A stretch of 64,000 nucleotides of DNA, from NCBI RefSeq assembly GCF_051903065.1, contig NZ_CP178438.1; one strand, given 5' to 3'. Below the pieces are notes generated by a model. It did no database searches. It was not told the DNA's origin and was given only the letters and a program-made list of their open reading frames with translations. Source of the DNA: Escherichia coli (GTDB lineage: Bacteria > Pseudomonadota > Gammaproteobacteria > Enterobacterales > Enterobacteriaceae). The position numbers and the translations under genes are program-made. Positions 1 to 16,339 of the stretch are shown piece by piece; the stretch's first letter is position 1; every line of letters begins with the position of its first letter.

Positions 1-707
1 ACATTGATACCAGCGACTTTTATGGTCCGCACGTCACCAATCAGATTATCCGCGAAGCGCTTTATCCTTACTCTGACGATCTGACAATTGTCACTAAAAT
101 TGGTGCGCGGCGTGGAGAGGACGCATCCTGGTTGCCCGCATTTTCTCCGGCAGAGCTGCAAAAAGCGGTGCACGATAATCTACGTAATCTCGGCCTGGAC
201 GTACTGGATGTGGTTAACCTGCGCGTGATGATGGGGGATGGTCATGGCCCGGCGGAAGGATCGATTGAAGCCAGCCTGACCGTGCTGGCAGAGATGCAAC
301 AACAAGGCCTGGTAAAACATATTGGCCTAAGCAACGTCACACCGACGCAGGTTGCAGAGGCGCGCAAGATTGCCGAAATCGTCTGTGTGCAGAACGAATA
401 CAACATTGCTCATCGTGCTGATGACGCAATGATTGAAGCTTTGGCTCGTGACGGCATTGCCTACGTGCCGTTCTTTCCGCTCGGGGGCTTTACGCCGCTG
501 CAATCTTCCACGCTTTCCGATGTTGCTGCGAGCCTGGGTGCAACACCAATGCAGGTGGCGCTGGCGTGGCTGTTACAACGTTCACCGAATATTTTGCTGA
601 TCCCAGGGACGTCTTCTGTTGCGCATTTACGGGAGAATATGGCTGCTGAAAAATTGCATCTTTCTGAGGAAGTGTTGTCTACGTTGGATGGTATTTCGCG
701 AGAATAA
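1..707 (+). CDS. ydbC: Aldo-keto reductase family oxidoreductase, 5'-truncated by window edge
   Basis: ORF runs in frame from the window start to a stop at 707; AKR-like sequence (IPGTSSVAHLREN); position upstream of ydbD. Confidence 0.75.
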   Translation, partial: IDTSDFYGPHVTNQIIREALYPYSDDLTIVTKIGARRGEDASWLPAFSPAELQKAVHDNLRNLGLDVLDVVNLRVMMGDGHGPAEGSIEASLTVLAEMQQQGLVKHIGLSNVTPTQVAEARKIAEIVCVQNEYNIAHRADDAMIEALARDGIAYVPFFPLGGFTPLQSSTLSDVAASLGATPMQVALAWLLQRSPNILLIPGTSSVAHLRENMAAEKLHLSEEVLSTLDGISRE

Positions 708-940
708 CGAATATACAAAAGGGAAAGATGCATTTCCCTTTTGTTTCTTTTTTAATGGCATGGAGTGCATATGTTTAAGCCCAGGATTTGCAGCTGGATA
801 GGTTTACTTCCCCTGTTTATGCTGAGTCTTCCAGTACAGGCGGAACTTCGATGCGTTGCAAATGCAGTTGATATTGAACTTTTTTTTCTGCGGCTACCGC
901 TGAAGATAAACAACAAGTTGAACAAGCTATCAACAGTAGC

Positions 941-3076
941 GTGAATCTTGTCCCCTTCGGTTTATCTGCATCGGACTGGAAAGTGCATCGTGGCGATTTA
1001 GTGATAGAAGGTAATATAGAGAGTAATCAAAAATTGATTGTTCTTGGCAATTTGACAGTCAAAGGTAATATTTCCACTTTCTCTCTTTCTAATCCATGGG
1101 TTATTCTCGGTAACGTGACGGCAACGAATATAGTTACGGATTCACCACTGTTAATTACCGGTTCGATAAATGCAAGTGGACTGGTATTTATCGACTCATA
1201 TTACGATAATCCGTCTACGATTAAGGGGAGTATTAATGCGCGTGGGATATTTATCAATGACATAATTGCACCTGTTGTTGCGTCTTCGACAAATAGTGAA
1301 TTCATGGTCCGTGCGAGTGACAAAAATGACACTGAAAATGTCAAAAAAGCGCTGATGATAATAAATCCTGATGCATATTATTGGGGTCTAATAAATGATG
1401 AAGATGCTCTGAAAGAAATTTTTAAGCGAAGCAATATTCGCATGGCAGGGAATGTCTGTAATCAGATGAAAAAAGAAGCGCTGTTTCGCCCTAAGCCTTC
1501 TCCTGAGTTAGTGCAGGAATTGCAAATGCTGGATGAAGGCAACGTTGCTGCATTTGAAGGACGAGATATTGCGACATTTGATCTTGCCATAATGCGAACT
1601 CTCCCAAGGCTTAAAGGAATTTCAGCTAACCTACGCAAACAACTTATTAATAGCAATGATGGACAAACGATTGCAAGTATGGCGAGATATATGCCTGACA
1701 ATGAGATTCTGGAGTTGACCGATCAGCAATTGGGTTACCAGCCTGTTGTTCTGGGGTTGCTCGACCGTGAACCGCTCTCTGTCGAAATAATGACGCGAAT
1801 GAGTCATCTACCTGATGGTGTCGGTCCGTTGAATCTTGCGCTACGTGAAAATCTTCCTCTGGATATCGTCATGACTCTGGCGAAAAGAGATTGGGATATG
1901 ATCATTCAGGAGCTTTATAAAGATGCGTGGTTATTGCCCGAATCCATTATTGATGGCTATATCCGCAGTGATGATTCCTCTATTCGTCAGGTCGGTGCTG
2001 GAGGACAACTCACCTACAATCAGGCAATGCAGTTGGCGAACGATTCATCAAACGATGTTGTCACAAGCTTAGCGTTAAAGCTGGCAGAGATGAAACACCA
2101 TGGTCAATTGTTGCGGATGACGCCACAAGAGAGTGACAAAATAGCAGTATATTTATACCAAAAATTCGAGAATGACGATGATCTAATAGGTGCGTTATTT
2201 TTAGCGTTGCCAGATAACTTACAGTTTAATTTTGTTAAAAGGATGGAGAAAAAATCCCCTGCCTATTTTTGCTGTCGGGATATGCAGATAATTCACTCTG
2301 ACGCTGCTTTACAACGGTTATTGACACGTTTCAACGATCCTGAGGGGTGGAGTAATCTGGCGAAAAATCAGTATCTGAGCACGTCGATGAAACAAAAAAT
2401 TTGGCAACGTGCTTTATCGCATCGGAAAAATAATCCCAAAGCAGATTCAGATGCATATGAAACCAGCGCTGATATGATTTTGTCTGAGCTTATCAGCTAC
2501 GGTGAAGTTGATGACCAGATGCTATTAAATGCCACCTCTCTGATACGTTCGGACGACTGGGACTTTTTAGAGAGAGCATTAATTAGTTGGGATAATTTAC
2601 CCGCTGTTGTTCTCAAGGAATTACAGCAAAACACGCTACGCAATGATATTTGGGCGAAGTTTTTTCTGAGGCAGGAAAACAGTTCCCGTGCGCAGGTTAA
2701 CGAAGCGTTACGTGTTTATTATGCACTAGACCCCGATGCGTTAGCACAACTGGATGTACTGGCAAAACAACCGGATCGTATATGGTGGAGTACACTGGCG
2801 AAAAGCAATCTCACATTTTTCAAGTTCGGCGCACTTAACAACCGCCACACACCGCCTGCGGTACTGGCGGCAGAAATTGATCCCGAGTGGTGGATTGTGG
2901 CGATGAATAATCTCCGTTTTCCAGTTGATGTATTAAAGGCGAGGCTGAAACGTGATCCTTTGCTGGCGTTAGAGCTTGTTAACCCTGAACTGGATTTAGT
3001 TCGCCAGCTGGCGCTTAACGGTAAGACGCGCGCAATACGGGAACAAGCGATGAGAAAACTTGATGAGTTGTATTGA
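941..3076 (+). CDS. ydbD: YdbD-like large periplasmic protein; main ORF from GTG, with the signal-peptide segment (771-941) in another frame
   Basis: 711-aa ORF; an upstream 57-codon segment starting ATG 771 encodes a signal peptide (MFKPRICSWIGLLPLFMLSLPVQA) and joins this ORF if one T is added to the T8 run at 880-887. Confidence 0.7.
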   Translation: MNLVPFGLSASDWKVHRGDLVIEGNIESNQKLIVLGNLTVKGNISTFSLSNPWVILGNVTATNIVTDSPLLITGSINASGLVFIDSYYDNPSTIKGSINARGIFINDIIAPVVASSTNSEFMVRASDKNDTENVKKALMIINPDAYYWGLINDEDALKEIFKRSNIRMAGNVCNQMKKEALFRPKPSPELVQELQMLDEGNVAAFEGRDIATFDLAIMRTLPRLKGISANLRKQLINSNDGQTIASMARYMPDNEILELTDQQLGYQPVVLGLLDREPLSVEIMTRMSHLPDGVGPLNLALRENLPLDIVMTLAKRDWDMIIQELYKDAWLLPESIIDGYIRSDDSSIRQVGAGGQLTYNQAMQLANDSSNDVVTSLALKLAEMKHHGQLLRMTPQESDKIAVYLYQKFENDDDLIGALFLALPDNLQFNFVKRMEKKSPAYFCCRDMQIIHSDAALQRLLTRFNDPEGWSNLAKNQYLSTSMKQKIWQRALSHRKNNPKADSDAYETSADMILSELISYGEVDDQMLLNATSLIRSDDWDFLERALISWDNLPAVVLKELQQNTLRNDIWAKFFLRQENSSRAQVNEALRVYYALDPDALAQLDVLAKQPDRIWWSTLAKSNLTFFKFGALNNRHTPPAVLAAEIDPEWWIVAMNNLRFPVDVLKARLKRDPLLALELVNPELDLVRQLALNGKTRAIREQAMRKLDELY

Positions 3077-3245
3077 ATAACAGCGTAATAATTTTTAACC
3101 ACTTGATTTATTGGGATAATCATTCCTGACAGTGAGTCCCCAATACCTTGATATATTCTGAATTTTTAATGAAGCGTCGTGTTGCGATATCTCCGTCAGG
3201 GGAATTGATGCACCATAGCGCAAACCGAATTATCAAGGATTGATA

Positions 3246-3851
3246 ATGACGCTCTACCAGATAAAACCGCTCTTTCAGTCGCTGTTAAGGCCGACGATGT
3301 TTTGGCTTTATAAGCACCATGTTACAGCGAATCACATCACTCTTGCTGCACTGGCGCTTTCTCTTATTACCGGATTACTGTTGATGTTGGTCGCACAACC
3401 CATCCTCTTTTTGCTATTGCCCATCGTGCTTTTTATCCGTATGGCGCTCAATGCGCTGGATGGCATGTTGGCGCGTGAGTGCAATCAGCAAACACGTCTT
3501 GGGGCGATTTTGAATGAAACTGGCGATGTTATTTCCGATATTGCGCTCTATTTACCGTTTTTATTTTTACCAGAAAGTAACGCATCACTCGTAATACTAA
3601 TGTTATTTTGCACCATATTGACTGAGTTTTGCGGTTTACTCGCGAAGACGATTAACGGTATTCGCAGTTATGCCGGTCCATTCGGCAAAAGCGATCGTGC
3701 GTTAATATTTGGGTTGTGGGGGCTGGCCGTTGCCATTTATCCACAGTGGATGCAATGGAATAATCTTTTATGGGGCATTGCTTCAATTCTGCTTATCTGG
3801 ACTGCGATTAATCGTTGTCGGAGTGTGCTCCTGATGAGTGCTGAAAGATAA
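3246..3851 (+). CDS. ynbA: CDP-alcohol phosphatidyltransferase family membrane protein
   Basis: 201-aa multi-TM ORF from internal ATG; ATGA overlap with next gene. Confidence 0.8.
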   Translation: MTLYQIKPLFQSLLRPTMFWLYKHHVTANHITLAALALSLITGLLLMLVAQPILFLLLPIVLFIRMALNALDGMLARECNQQTRLGAILNETGDVISDIALYLPFLFLPESNASLVILMLFCTILTEFCGLLAKTINGIRSYAGPFGKSDRALIFGLWGLAVAIYPQWMQWNNLLWGIASILLIWTAINRCRSVLLMSAER

Positions 3852-4747
3852 TGCTGGAAAAATCTCTGGCAACACTTTTCGCGTTGTTAATTTTAGCAAC
3901 GCTGATAAACCGTTTTCGGGTATGGCGGTTACCGGAGAGAAAAGAGGATGAAGTTACATTACGTATTCGTACCTGGTGGGGTATCGTCATTTGTTTTTCA
4001 CTGGTGATTTCAGGTCCACGCTGGATGACGTTGACGTTTTTTGCGCTGATAAGTTTTCTGGCATTGAAAGAATATTGTACGCTTATATCCGTACATTTTC
4101 CGCGTTGGTTATATTGGGTTATTCCTCTTAACTATTTGCTTATCGGTTTTAATTGCTTTGAGCTGTTTCTGTTATTTATACCTTTGGCTGGGGTTCTGAT
4201 ATTAACCACCTGGCGAGTTTTAGTAGGTGATACCTCCGGTTTTCTGCATACCGTGAGCGCCATTTTTTGGGGCTGGATAATGACCGTTTTCGCCTTGAGT
4301 CATGCCGCCTGGTTATTAATGTTGCCAACCACAAATACCCAGGGCGGGGCGTTACTGGTGTTATTTATTTTGGCGTTAACAGAGTCAAACGATATTGCAC
4401 AGTATTTATGGGGGAAATCCTGCGGCAGAAGAAAAGTGGTCCCCAAAGTCAGCCCGGGAAAAACGCTGGAAGGTCTGGTGGGGGGCGTAATCACCACCAT
4501 GATTGCGTCACTGATTATTGGGCCGTTGCTGACACCGCTAAATACATTACAGGCATTATTAGCGGGTTTGTTAATTGGTATTAGTGGTTTTTGCGGCGAT
4601 GTAGTGATGTCAGCCATCAAACGAGATATTGGTGTTAAAGATAGCGGAAAACTATTACCAGGACATGGCGGACTCCTTGACAGGATTGACTCATTAATTT
4701 TCACCGCTCCGGTATTTTTTTATTTTATTCGCTACTGCTGTTACTGA
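3851..4747 (+). CDS. ynbB: CdsA-like phosphatidate cytidylyltransferase paralog
   Basis: 298-aa membrane ORF, CTP_transf_1-like C-terminus (KRDIGVKDSGKLLPGHGGLLDRIDS). Confidence 0.8.
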   Translation: MLEKSLATLFALLILATLINRFRVWRLPERKEDEVTLRIRTWWGIVICFSLVISGPRWMTLTFFALISFLALKEYCTLISVHFPRWLYWVIPLNYLLIGFNCFELFLLFIPLAGVLILTTWRVLVGDTSGFLHTVSAIFWGWIMTVFALSHAAWLLMLPTTNTQGGALLVLFILALTESNDIAQYLWGKSCGRRKVVPKVSPGKTLEGLVGGVITTMIASLIIGPLLTPLNTLQALLAGLLIGISGFCGDVVMSAIKRDIGVKDSGKLLPGHGGLLDRIDSLIFTAPVFFYFIRYCCY

Positions 4748-15337: not shown

Positions 15338-16339
15338 TCAGAGTTTAGCGAATTTTTCGAGGGTGCGAATAAGCTGCGTGACGAAGCCATATTCGTTATC
15401 GTACCAGGCGACCGTTTTCACCAGTTGTAAATCGCCCACGGCGGTAATTTCCGTTTGCGTGGCATCAAACACCGAACCGAAATGGCTGCCAATGATATCG
15501 GAAGAGACTATTTCTTCATCGGTATAACCAAATGACTCGTTATTGGTGGTTGCTTGTTTAAGTGCGTTATTCACCTCTTCGGTAGTCACTTTTTTTCCGA
15601 GAATGGACACCAGCTCAGTGACCGAACCTGTTTTCACCGGTACGCGTTGCGCATGACCTTTCAGTTTGCTGCTCAGTTCCGGTATCACCAGACCAATGGC
15701 TTTTGCCGCCCCCGTAGTGTGGGGAATGATATTTTCTGCCGCGGCGCGTGAAGCACGTAAATCTTTACCACGCGGGCCATCCACCAGTGACTGGGTGCCA
15801 GTATATGCATGAATGGTCGTCATCGTGCCGACTTCTATCCCGAAACTGTCATGCAAGGCTTTGGCCATCGGCGCAAGACAGTTAGTAGTGCATGATGCCA
15901 CGGAAACAATGGTGTCGTTGCTATCCAGAGTGTCGTCATTGACGTTATAAACGATAGTTTTCATTTCACCGGCAGGGGCGGAAATCAACACCTTCTTCGC
16001 GCCAGCATCAAGATGCGCCTGCGATTTCTCGGCGGAGGTATAAAAGCCAGTACATTCGACAATGATTTCTGCACCTTTCGCTTTCCACGGAATATTTTTA
16101 GCCTCTTTTTCGGCGTAAACCGCGATACTTTTCCCATTAACGATAAGTGAATCTTCCGTAAAATCAACGCTCCAGGGGAACGGTCCGTAGTTTGAATCAT
16201 GTTTCAGCAGGTAGGCGAGAATTTTTGGAGAAGTGAGATCATTAATAGCGACAACGTCTATGTTGCTTTTGACTTCAAGTAATCGACGCAACACCAGTCG
16301 ACCGATACGACCAAAACCGTTAATACCAACTTTACTCAT
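15338..16339 (-). CDS. gapC: Glyceraldehyde-3-phosphate dehydrogenase, apparently intact
   Basis: Uninterrupted 333-aa ORF; NAD-binding INGFGRIGR and active-site [10 protein letters not shown]. Confidence 0.85.

Follow-up and report, generated by a model that had tools for sequence, protein, structure and literature searches.

A clonally inherited single-base frameshift beside the T8 tract of ydbD in Escherichia coli

The break in ydbD described here is already known as such. RefSeq PGAP flags the gene as 'frameshifted' in three genomes, ECNB21-M121 (LA372_RS12040), 23CRST027 (AC6IZ1_RS08595) and 23CRST031 (AC6I2E_RS10370), without naming the missing base. The gene, the coordinates and the allele are the same as in the window, i.e. 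the 64,000-nt stretch of E. coli DNA from contig NZ_CP178438.1 that we analysed. A second closely related case is the CAA-T6 haplotype of ydbD, found for example in CP53, CFSAN061761, OkiPb01684, 14EC001 and EC20-72C-1. Its -1 frameshift falls within the ten bases affected in the window and leads to an identical shifted tail ...FFLRLPLKINNKLNKLSTVA and an identical stop; the gene has no other lesion there, and the state is fixed on one haplotype. In CAA-T6, however, the T run itself went from T7 to T6 in a Gln37 background and the state is common, whereas the window allele, which is rare, keeps its run length, lacks a C and has Leu at codon 37.

Contingency loci with homopolymer tracts are found in Campylobacter, Neisseria and Haemophilus. 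They resemble ydbD in having a homopolymer early in the gene for an exported protein and in occurring as ON and OFF alleles within one species. The ydbD tract differs from them in being short and fixed in lineages, and in that the ON and OFF alleles of the window's lineage have tracts of the same length; a tract of 8 nt is on the short side for such loci. The pseudo pseudogenes rescued by transcriptional slippage (Baranov et al. 2005, PMC1088944) are like the window allele in that a single-base frameshift occurs in some strains at an A/T homopolymer, where a non-templated insertion could put the frame right. The runs in those cases are 9 nt long and were made by the mutation itself, while the run in the window is 8 nt long and was not lengthened.

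Layout of the split gene

The initial annotation had read the locus as two frames, the first a signal-peptide frame of 57 codons opened by the ATG at 771 and the second a 711-codon ORF that begins at the GTG at 941. It had also placed a T8 run between the two starts and predicted that one base added at this run would give a single 768-aa protein. All of these statements agree with the sequence: the run is preceded by C879 and followed by C888, and the fused frame has no other stop. The features are listed in Table 1.

Table 1. Features of the ydbD locus in window coordinates.
Feature	Position	Strand	Description
Terminator-like hairpin and T tail	715..754	+	12-pair stem with T-rich tail, lying between pdxI (stop at 707) and the start of ydbD
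GGAG Shine-Dalgarno-like motif	762..765	+	5 nt 5' of ATG 771; read from the sequence, putative function
ydbD pseudogene, whole gene	771..3076	+	2,306 nt versus 2,307; collinear with intact 768-aa ydbD, flanked by pdxI and ynbA
Predicted Sec signal peptide MFKPRICSWIGLLPLFMLSLPVQA	771..842	+	codons 1-24; K3/R5 n-region, hydrophobic core, V-Q-A at -3..-1
Truncated 57-codon frame	771..944	+	signal peptide followed by 33 residues, of which the final 21 are out of frame; TGA 942-944
Lesion site	879..879	+	one C in place of the CC of the nearest intact alleles (codon 37 CCT = Pro)
T8 run	880..887	+	length equals that of the intact CCT8 alleles
Remaining ydbD frame, residues 58-768	941..3076	+	GTG 941, 711 codons, otherwise intact
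C-terminal DUF2773	2831..3073	+	Pfam PF10971, residues 688-768 of the repaired protein, E = 5.3e-44

The split is real and not a chance pattern of ORFs, because the intact 768-aa orthologues of K-12, O157:H7, TUM13936, MS1665 and FLI21 are annotated from the same ATG. These orthologues keep the upstream ATG together with its signal-peptide frame rather than starting at the downstream GTG, an arrangement that the initial annotation had also considered. The gene order pdxI-ydbD-ynbA is present at the locus as in other E. coli, and the extent of the whole gene matches the 'frameshifted' PGAP feature in 23CRST027 exactly.

The frame opened at 771-773 encodes MFKPRICSWIGLLPLFMLSLPVQA/ELRC..., where the predicted cleavage site was placed using the -3/-1 rule. 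K-12, O157, TUM13936, MS1665 and FLI21 share the hydrophobic core and the VQA/ELRC site but vary in the n-region. The peptide CVANAVDIELFFLR would be diagnostic of the truncated product, and the exact 57-codon peptide (P0001) is present in public assemblies, where the exact 711-aa product (P0016) is found on ~24 contigs. The GTG of the second frame overlaps the upstream stop (GTGA, 941-944), and we found no Shine-Dalgarno-like sequence 5' of it. The DUF2773 match scores 148.7 bits against a cut-off of 25. The RefSeq name points to a bactofilin-type N-terminal region, for which no Pfam or NCBIfam match was found at E <= 0.01; a weak MinC-like match to residues 67-126 (E = 0.008) is far below the cut-off.

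The missing base and its inheritance

A comparison of T-run length among relatives, as proposed in the initial annotation, placed the frameshift beside the run and showed the run to be unchanged in length. The window and ECNB21-M121 read GAA-C-T8 at this site, while TUM13936, 14EC033 and O157 read GAA-CC-T8 (alignments A1 and A2); within 870-895 the clone allele has the sequence GAACTTTTTTTTCTG. The lesion had been placed inside the T8 homopolymer, which is one base off, since intact and broken alleles alike have T8 and the missing base is a C directly 5' of the run. Judged from these alignments, the lost base would most simply be one C of the CC pair adjoining T8. With a C restored at 879 the frame runs through 768 aa free of internal stops, so that the gene has a single lesion, and the C-restored protein differs at 6 residues from that of TUM13936 and at 8 from that of O157.

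The repair suggested at first, i.e. C-T9, would give Leu37, whereas all the intact alleles have Pro, Ser or Gln at this residue. An 81-mer carrying C-T9 has no exact match in any of the 3,444 complete E. coli genomes, and we therefore rejected a T9 to T8 contraction as a simple explanation. A frameshift adjacent to a homopolymer hence need not be a change in run length. Once the nearest intact allele was taken as the reference, the lesion shifted by one base, and the inferred ancestral residue 37 became Pro instead of Leu.

The exact window allele (80-mer) is carried by three of the 3,444 complete E. coli genomes, and only these three are ~100% identical to positions 1-25000 of the window, the next being 99.0% identical. 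The carriers were isolated from human faeces in Ecuador and from meat in China. The window has 3 differences in 50,000 positions to 23CRST027, and its positions 601-3300, which cover ydbD and its flanks, are 100% identical to both 23CRST027 and 23CRST031. ECNB21-M121 differs by two SNPs in ydbD, and its 25-kb match is ~776 bases longer, the extra sequence lying outside this gene. The clone-specific SNPs are A1004, T1855 and T2637. We fetched 10 draft or SRA assemblies out of the ~24 with an identical 711-aa ORF, and all 10 carry GAACT8CTG and are identical to positions 1-4576 of the window; the same allele was seen in five further runs. No variation of the tract was observed among the clone members (three complete and 10 draft/SRA, n = 13).

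Our analysis suggests that this is, with high probability, a genuine and clonally inherited loss-of-function allele of ydbD. An ancestor with the intact ...GAA CCT TTT TTT TCT... would have lost one base, most simply a C. Translation from the ATG at 771 now departs from the ydbD frame at codon 37 and ends after 57 codons, giving at most the signal peptide and a 33-residue fragment. The other 711 codons have neither a Shine-Dalgarno sequence nor a signal peptide, and little or no exported YdbD would be expected for this reason. Within the clone the mutation is fixed and stable. The pseudogene option of the initial annotation is thus supported, given the heritable lesion and the PGAP 'frameshifted' flag in three RefSeq genomes. 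Several points count against this reading. Some residual product could arise through the U8 that is still present or through the overlap of stop and start at GTGA, and the final C-T8 state is by itself compatible with either a one-step deletion of a C or a route of two steps. The rest of the ORF is also intact, so that the lesion is recent or the downstream frame is still somewhat constrained.

Metagenome data are a further point against it. Short metagenome contigs join C-T8 to alleles not seen in the clone, but these contigs are mixed-strain mosaics. We considered the C-T8 metagenome contigs L016-L021 (Logan, ENA) for dating the allele and tracing its spread and rejected them as haplotype evidence, since each combines common alleles in a mosaic; L017 and L019, though obtained from a single run, have different sequences.

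Other explanations of the allele

The C-T8 state could also have been reached through the T run, either by slippage from CCT8 to CCT7 with a later C to T change, or by a C to T change to an in-frame CT9 (P37L) with a subsequent contraction to CT8. The gene would still be a pseudogene in this case, but the mutation would be owed to the T run, as initially proposed. The tract is indeed established as a -1 hotspot. In the 90% cluster of the 57-aa peptide there are 32 variants of the form ...DIE[P/Q/S]FFLRL..., which are true T-run contractions, and the contractions occur in CCT, CCA, CAA and TCA backgrounds. CCT7 is found in two public contigs (L023 and L024) with the same N-terminal background, but these contigs do not have the clone-specific SNPs A1004 and T1855. 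Moreover, neither CCT7 nor CT9 occurs in any of the 13 clone members examined, both CT9 and exact CCT7 are found in 0 of the 3,444 complete genomes, and two events are needed where one suffices. We consider such a two-step origin unlikely.

Another explanation is that the frameshift is leaky. Insertion of one extra U by RNA polymerase on T8, or a -1 slip on U_UUU_UUU, would give a full-length exported YdbD with Leu37, and reinitiation at GTGA would give a cytoplasmic 711-aa form. The slippery motif U_UUU_UUU is present at 881-887 in the right register, with zero-frame codons CUU UUU UUU, and the -1 frame after the slip continues as UCU GCG GCU, which is ydbD; CVANAVDIELFFSAATAEDK is the junction peptide expected if the frame is restored. 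The direction fits as well, a deletion of 1 nt in the DNA being offset by a 1-nt insertion in the RNA or by a -1 slip, and the 711 codons that follow are still intact. In E. coli, transcriptional insertions cluster in A/T runs, and their frequency grows exponentially as the runs lengthen (PMC5574713), and frameshift alleles rescued by slippage have been described in E. coli (PMC1088944). We assessed the slippage potential of 881-887 from these two papers and from PMC4066793, which reports that heptamers without a stimulator reach only 2-10 times the 0.055% background. According to Baranov et al., 9-mers are slippage-prone and 8-mers are non-slippery (PMC1088944), and the run in the window is an 8-mer of the non-slippery class. 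Traverse and Ochman found no case of transcriptional rescue (PMC5574713). No Shine-Dalgarno-like stimulator is visible in the sequence upstream of the slip site, and the region 870-960 shows no stimulatory fold, its folding energy being -17.2 kcal/mol (z = -0.84) with 37 of 200 shuffles folding as well. Reinitiation at GTG 941 is disfavoured by the missing Shine-Dalgarno-like sequence noted above, and the layout of two ORFs is not conserved, being found in 3/3,444 genomes while the orthologues are single ORFs. Slippage on the retained U8 might rescue the product at a low level, and we regard the leaky reading as improbable.

We may extend this to the species and speculate that the T tract at codons 37-40 is an evolvable weak point, through which lineages repeatedly switch off exported YdbD. 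The window allele would then be the leakiest one, a hypomorph making a little YdbD(L37), because it is the sole OFF allele that keeps the full T8. We give this idea only a slim chance.

The initial annotation had also raised a phase-variable switch, in which reversible length changes at high frequency would toggle the exported YdbD. The location is suggestive, as a T7-T8 run lies at codons 37-40, just past the signal peptide of an envelope-stress-induced gene (PMC2731931), and independent -1 alleles are known in several backgrounds. However, the ON and OFF alleles of this lineage both have T8 and differ in CC versus C, and the tract is invariant in the 13 clone members. Exact CCT7 and CCT9 were found in none of the 3,444 genomes versus 265 with CCT8, using 80-82-mers; such matches overlook alleles with SNPs in the flanks, and the peptides P0007 and P0011 show that CCT7 alleles of this kind do exist. 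The common T6 state lies on one tight haplotype, with 0-3 differences in 3.7 kb versus 23-30 to the T7 loci, and so arose once and has persisted. A contingency switch is therefore not supported and is very improbable here. The role given to the homopolymer stands in part: in other lineages of ydbD, -1 indels recur at the tract as a hotspot, and in the window the run is not altered.

Single-base indels next to homopolymers are a classic artefact, and the contigs L022, L024, L030 and L031 do combine T-run contractions with several frame breaks typical of noisy reads, but the suggestion of a sequencing or assembly error in a genome with an intact ydbD has next to no chance and is refuted by the recurrence of the identical allele, which different laboratories in different countries assembled independently and which at least 15 separate runs contain, by its presence in the three complete genomes, sampled in two countries, in 10/10 draft/SRA assemblies and in the five further runs, by its restriction to the clone matching the window (0 of ~3,441 other complete genomes), and by the affected base, which is a C and not the length of the run.

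Repeated loss of ydbD

ydbD is dispensable, weakly constrained and repeatedly lost in E. coli, often at or beside the T tract. We consider it dispensable because it carries an IS1 insertion in 14EC033, an internal stop in Res13 and the T7 to T6 frameshift in a haplotype of 65-67 complete genomes, and because it is absent from roughly 1,000-1,500 of 5,426 genomes. The 28 nonsynonymous versus 20 synonymous codon differences to K-12 point to weak constraint. The literature on E. coli ydbD is nearly empty, and the only relevant item is an entry in a table of sigma-E induction, where the gene is listed as 'induced by methylglyoxal'.

The clone from Ecuadorian faeces and Chinese meat has lost a predicted exported protein that many E. 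coli lack anyway, and the finding has little import beyond annotation hygiene. On a small scale, ydbD illustrates how a mutational hotspot can drive parallel gene loss. Because ydbD is repeatedly disabled at the same ten bases in different lineages, the site could serve as a convenient natural marker for lineage typing. Contraction alleles recur across the species in CCT, CCA, CAA and TCA backgrounds, some of the low-count ones being possible read errors, and the CAA-T6 state is fixed on its single haplotype and is also present on at least 1,000 contigs.

The split reading frame and the missing base

The gene ydbD (771-3076, plus strand), found in the chromosomal order pdxI-ydbD-ynbABCD-azoR-hrpA and onward, is an ordinary, lineage-specific pseudogene in this E. 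coli and is annotated already; what we add is a correction of the missing base, most simply a C and not a T, and the finding that E. coli lineages have repeatedly lost ydbD at the adjoining tract. The reading frames and the T run described in the initial annotation are all present at the positions listed below. The frame departs from ydbD at codon 37 and ends at codon 58, and the remainder of the gene is intact. One base added at the T run does restore a 768-residue protein with no further stop, as had been proposed. Orthologues do not natively start at the downstream GTG, since K-12, O157:H7, TUM13936, MS1665 and FLI21 all have an annotated, intact 768-aa ydbD that begins at the same ATG. A strong terminator-like hairpin (715-754, a 12-pair stem plus a T tail) takes up most of the 63 nt that separate ydbD from the stop codon of pdxI, and no sigma-70-like promoter was found between this hairpin and the ATG.

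Elements of the split ydbD gene
Feature	Position	Remark	Basis
GGAG	762-765	upstream of ATG 771	read from sequence
57-codon frame MFKPRICSWIGLLPLFMLSLPVQAELRCVANAVDIELFFLRLPLKINNKLNKLSTVA	ATG 771 to TGA 942-944		read from sequence
711-codon ORF	GTG 941 to 3076		read from sequence
T8 run	880-887		read from sequence

We aligned the tract region with the nearest intact ydbD alleles. In 14EC033, O157:H7 and TUM13936, the last being the intact genome nearest to the window (99.0% over 25 kb), the tract is GAA CCT TTT TTT TCT GCG (E P F F S A), i.e. CC followed by the same T8; in the window and in ECNB21-M121 it is GAA C TTTTTTTT CTG. Further lineages carry CCA-T7, TCA-T7 (K-12) or CAA-T7. Because the nearest intact alleles have the same T8, the T run in the window is of wild-type length, and the simplest change is that the CC just 5' of the run has lost one C. 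The suggested comparison of T-run length, made with these nearest alleles, gives T8 on both sides and not the missing T that the proposed repair implied. The repair proposed earlier, a C-T9 tract encoding Leu37, restores the frame but is rejected as the ancestor, its 81-mer being matched exactly by none of 3,444 complete E. coli genomes, versus 265 for the CC-T8 81-mer.

Three routes would end in the same sequence, namely deletion of a C, CCT8 to CCT7 followed by C to T, and C to T (giving CT9) followed by T9 to T8. We consider the one-step deletion probable because it needs just one event, none of the 3,444 complete genomes has CT9, neither CCT7 nor CT9 occurs in clone members or close relatives, and the CCT7 contigs recovered lack the clone-specific SNPs. 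A two-step origin through either intermediate is kept alive by the hotspot behaviour of the T run, but it needs more than one event with intermediates absent from the clone, and seems unlikely.

Inheritance in one clone

Only three of the 3,444 complete genomes contain the exact 80-mer of the window, i.e. ECNB21-M121, from meat in Zhejiang, China, and 23CRST027 and 23CRST031, from human faeces in Santo Domingo, Ecuador, and only these three are ~100% identical to window positions 1-25000. The window differs from 23CRST027 at 3 of 50,000 positions and is not simply a copy of one of the three; ECNB21-M121 differs by two SNPs within ydbD and, outside the gene, is longer by about 776 bases over the 25-kb match. 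In a collection of 15 billion proteins the exact 711-aa product was found on about 24 contigs (NCBI drafts and Logan assemblies from independent SRA/ENA runs). All ten fetched contigs with this ORF have GAACTTTTTTTTCTG and are identical to window positions 1-4576, and the exact 57-aa peptide occurs in five further runs. The same allele in separate complete genomes, drafts and runs rules out the sequencing or assembly error that had been offered as one explanation. Six short metagenome contigs with C-T8 (L016-L021, from Logan and ENA, window ~513-2497) were set aside as haplotypes, since each mixes alleles that belong to other E. coli haplotypes and two contigs of one run (ERR1950666) disagree with each other.

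The pseudogene, another of the explanations offered, holds: PGAP labels ydbD 'frameshifted' in all three RefSeq genomes, the same object as the window allele. The deletion is older than the split of the Chinese and Ecuadorian sublineages. Since then the already broken gene has gained a derived nonsynonymous change, P623L (T2637), in the window/23CRST sublineage, and a synonymous change at position 1756 is private to ECNB21-M121; these changes fit neutral drift once the gene was inactivated, in a very small sample.

Switching, recoding and recurrent loss at the tract

The window allele behaves neither as a contingency locus nor as a programmed recoding site by the tests for each. The phase-variable homopolymer that had been suggested is contradicted by the equal tract length of the ON and OFF states, the lack of tract variation among the 13 clone members examined, and the absence of exact matches to CCT7 and CCT9 (80- and 82-mers) versus 265 for CCT8.

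The split gene would yield the signal peptide plus a 33-residue fragment, and exported YdbD is presumably not made because the 711-codon remainder has no signal peptide and no SD-like sequence before GTG 941. Leaks through slippage or reinitiation are conceivable. The mutant frame at the retained run reads CUU UUU UUU, which places U_UUU_UUU (881-887), a potential -1 slip site, in the right register; RNA polymerase could equally restore the frame by inserting one U, and both routes would give ...DIELFFSAATAEDK... Reinitiation at the GTGA stop-start overlap would yield at most a cytoplasmic truncated protein. Published data argue that slippage rescue would be small, as heptamers without stimulators reach 2-10 times a 0.055% background (PMC4066793), eight-base runs are deemed non-slippery in contrast to nine-base runs (PMC1088944), and no stimulatory RNA structure is predicted here (z = -0.84). 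The likeness to the 'pseudo pseudogenes' of Baranov is only superficial.

By exact-sequence look-up, the 57-aa peptide falls in a 90% cluster of 32 distinct 57-aa peptides, most reading ...DIE[P/Q/S]FFLRLPLK..., which are true T-run contractions (CCT8 to CCT7; CCA, CAA or TCA T7 to T6) on several backgrounds. Logan contigs include some rare contraction alleles that carry several frame breaks and are probably read errors. A close and commoner parallel to the window allele is CAA-T6 (GAA CAA T6 for T7 at codons 37-40 of ydbD, corresponding to window 876-888; L008, L013, L014, L015 and L045), present in 65 (+2) complete genomes versus 310 with the intact CAA-T7 81-mer; at least 1,000 public contigs encode its 57-aa peptide, and PGAP also calls ydbD 'frameshifted' in these genomes. 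CAA-T6 is the sole lesion in the gene and forms one tight haplotype: five T6 loci differ mutually by 0-3 positions in 3.7 kb versus 23-30 from four T7 loci, and CAA-T6 therefore arose once and has been inherited stably. The tract is a recurrent -1 mutational hotspot with each state fixed in its own lineage, a pattern of parallel gene loss and not of switching.

YdbD and other genes of the window

YdbD probably carries a typical Sec signal peptide, judged by its K/R n-region, hydrophobic core and V-Q-A at -3 to -1; alleles share the core and cleavage site and vary in the n-region. The repaired protein has DUF2773 at its C-terminus (residues 688-768, Pfam E = 5e-44). RefSeq names the product 'DUF2773 domain-containing bactofilin', and residues 1-687 (window 771-2830) gave no Pfam or NCBIfam match to a bactofilin domain at E <= 0.01; apart from DUF2773, these scans gave only a sub-threshold MinC-like match, at residues 67-126. 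We found no functional hints beyond a source name, 'protein involved in detoxification of methylglyoxal', and the entry 'induced by methylglyoxal' for ydbD in a sigma-E-induced table (PMC2731931).

The gene looks dispensable, as IS1 has inserted into it in 14EC033 (L005 3786-4483), and it carries an internal stop in Res13-Sevr-PER07-33 (L009 2432-4738), is missing from roughly 1,000-1,500 of 5,426 complete genomes, Nissle 1917 among them (the pdxI end alone matches), and in this allele differs from K-12 at 28 nonsynonymous and 20 synonymous codons.

Elsewhere in the window, the annotation of the near-identical 23CRST027 gives an IS200/IS605 tnpA with an internal stop and an adjoining intact insQ, a TnpB-family RNA-guided endonuclease gene (28770-30492). 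At 15338-16339 on the minus strand the annotation has 'gap', an intact gene for type I glyceraldehyde-3-phosphate dehydrogenase; the corresponding gapC of K-12 is a pseudogene.
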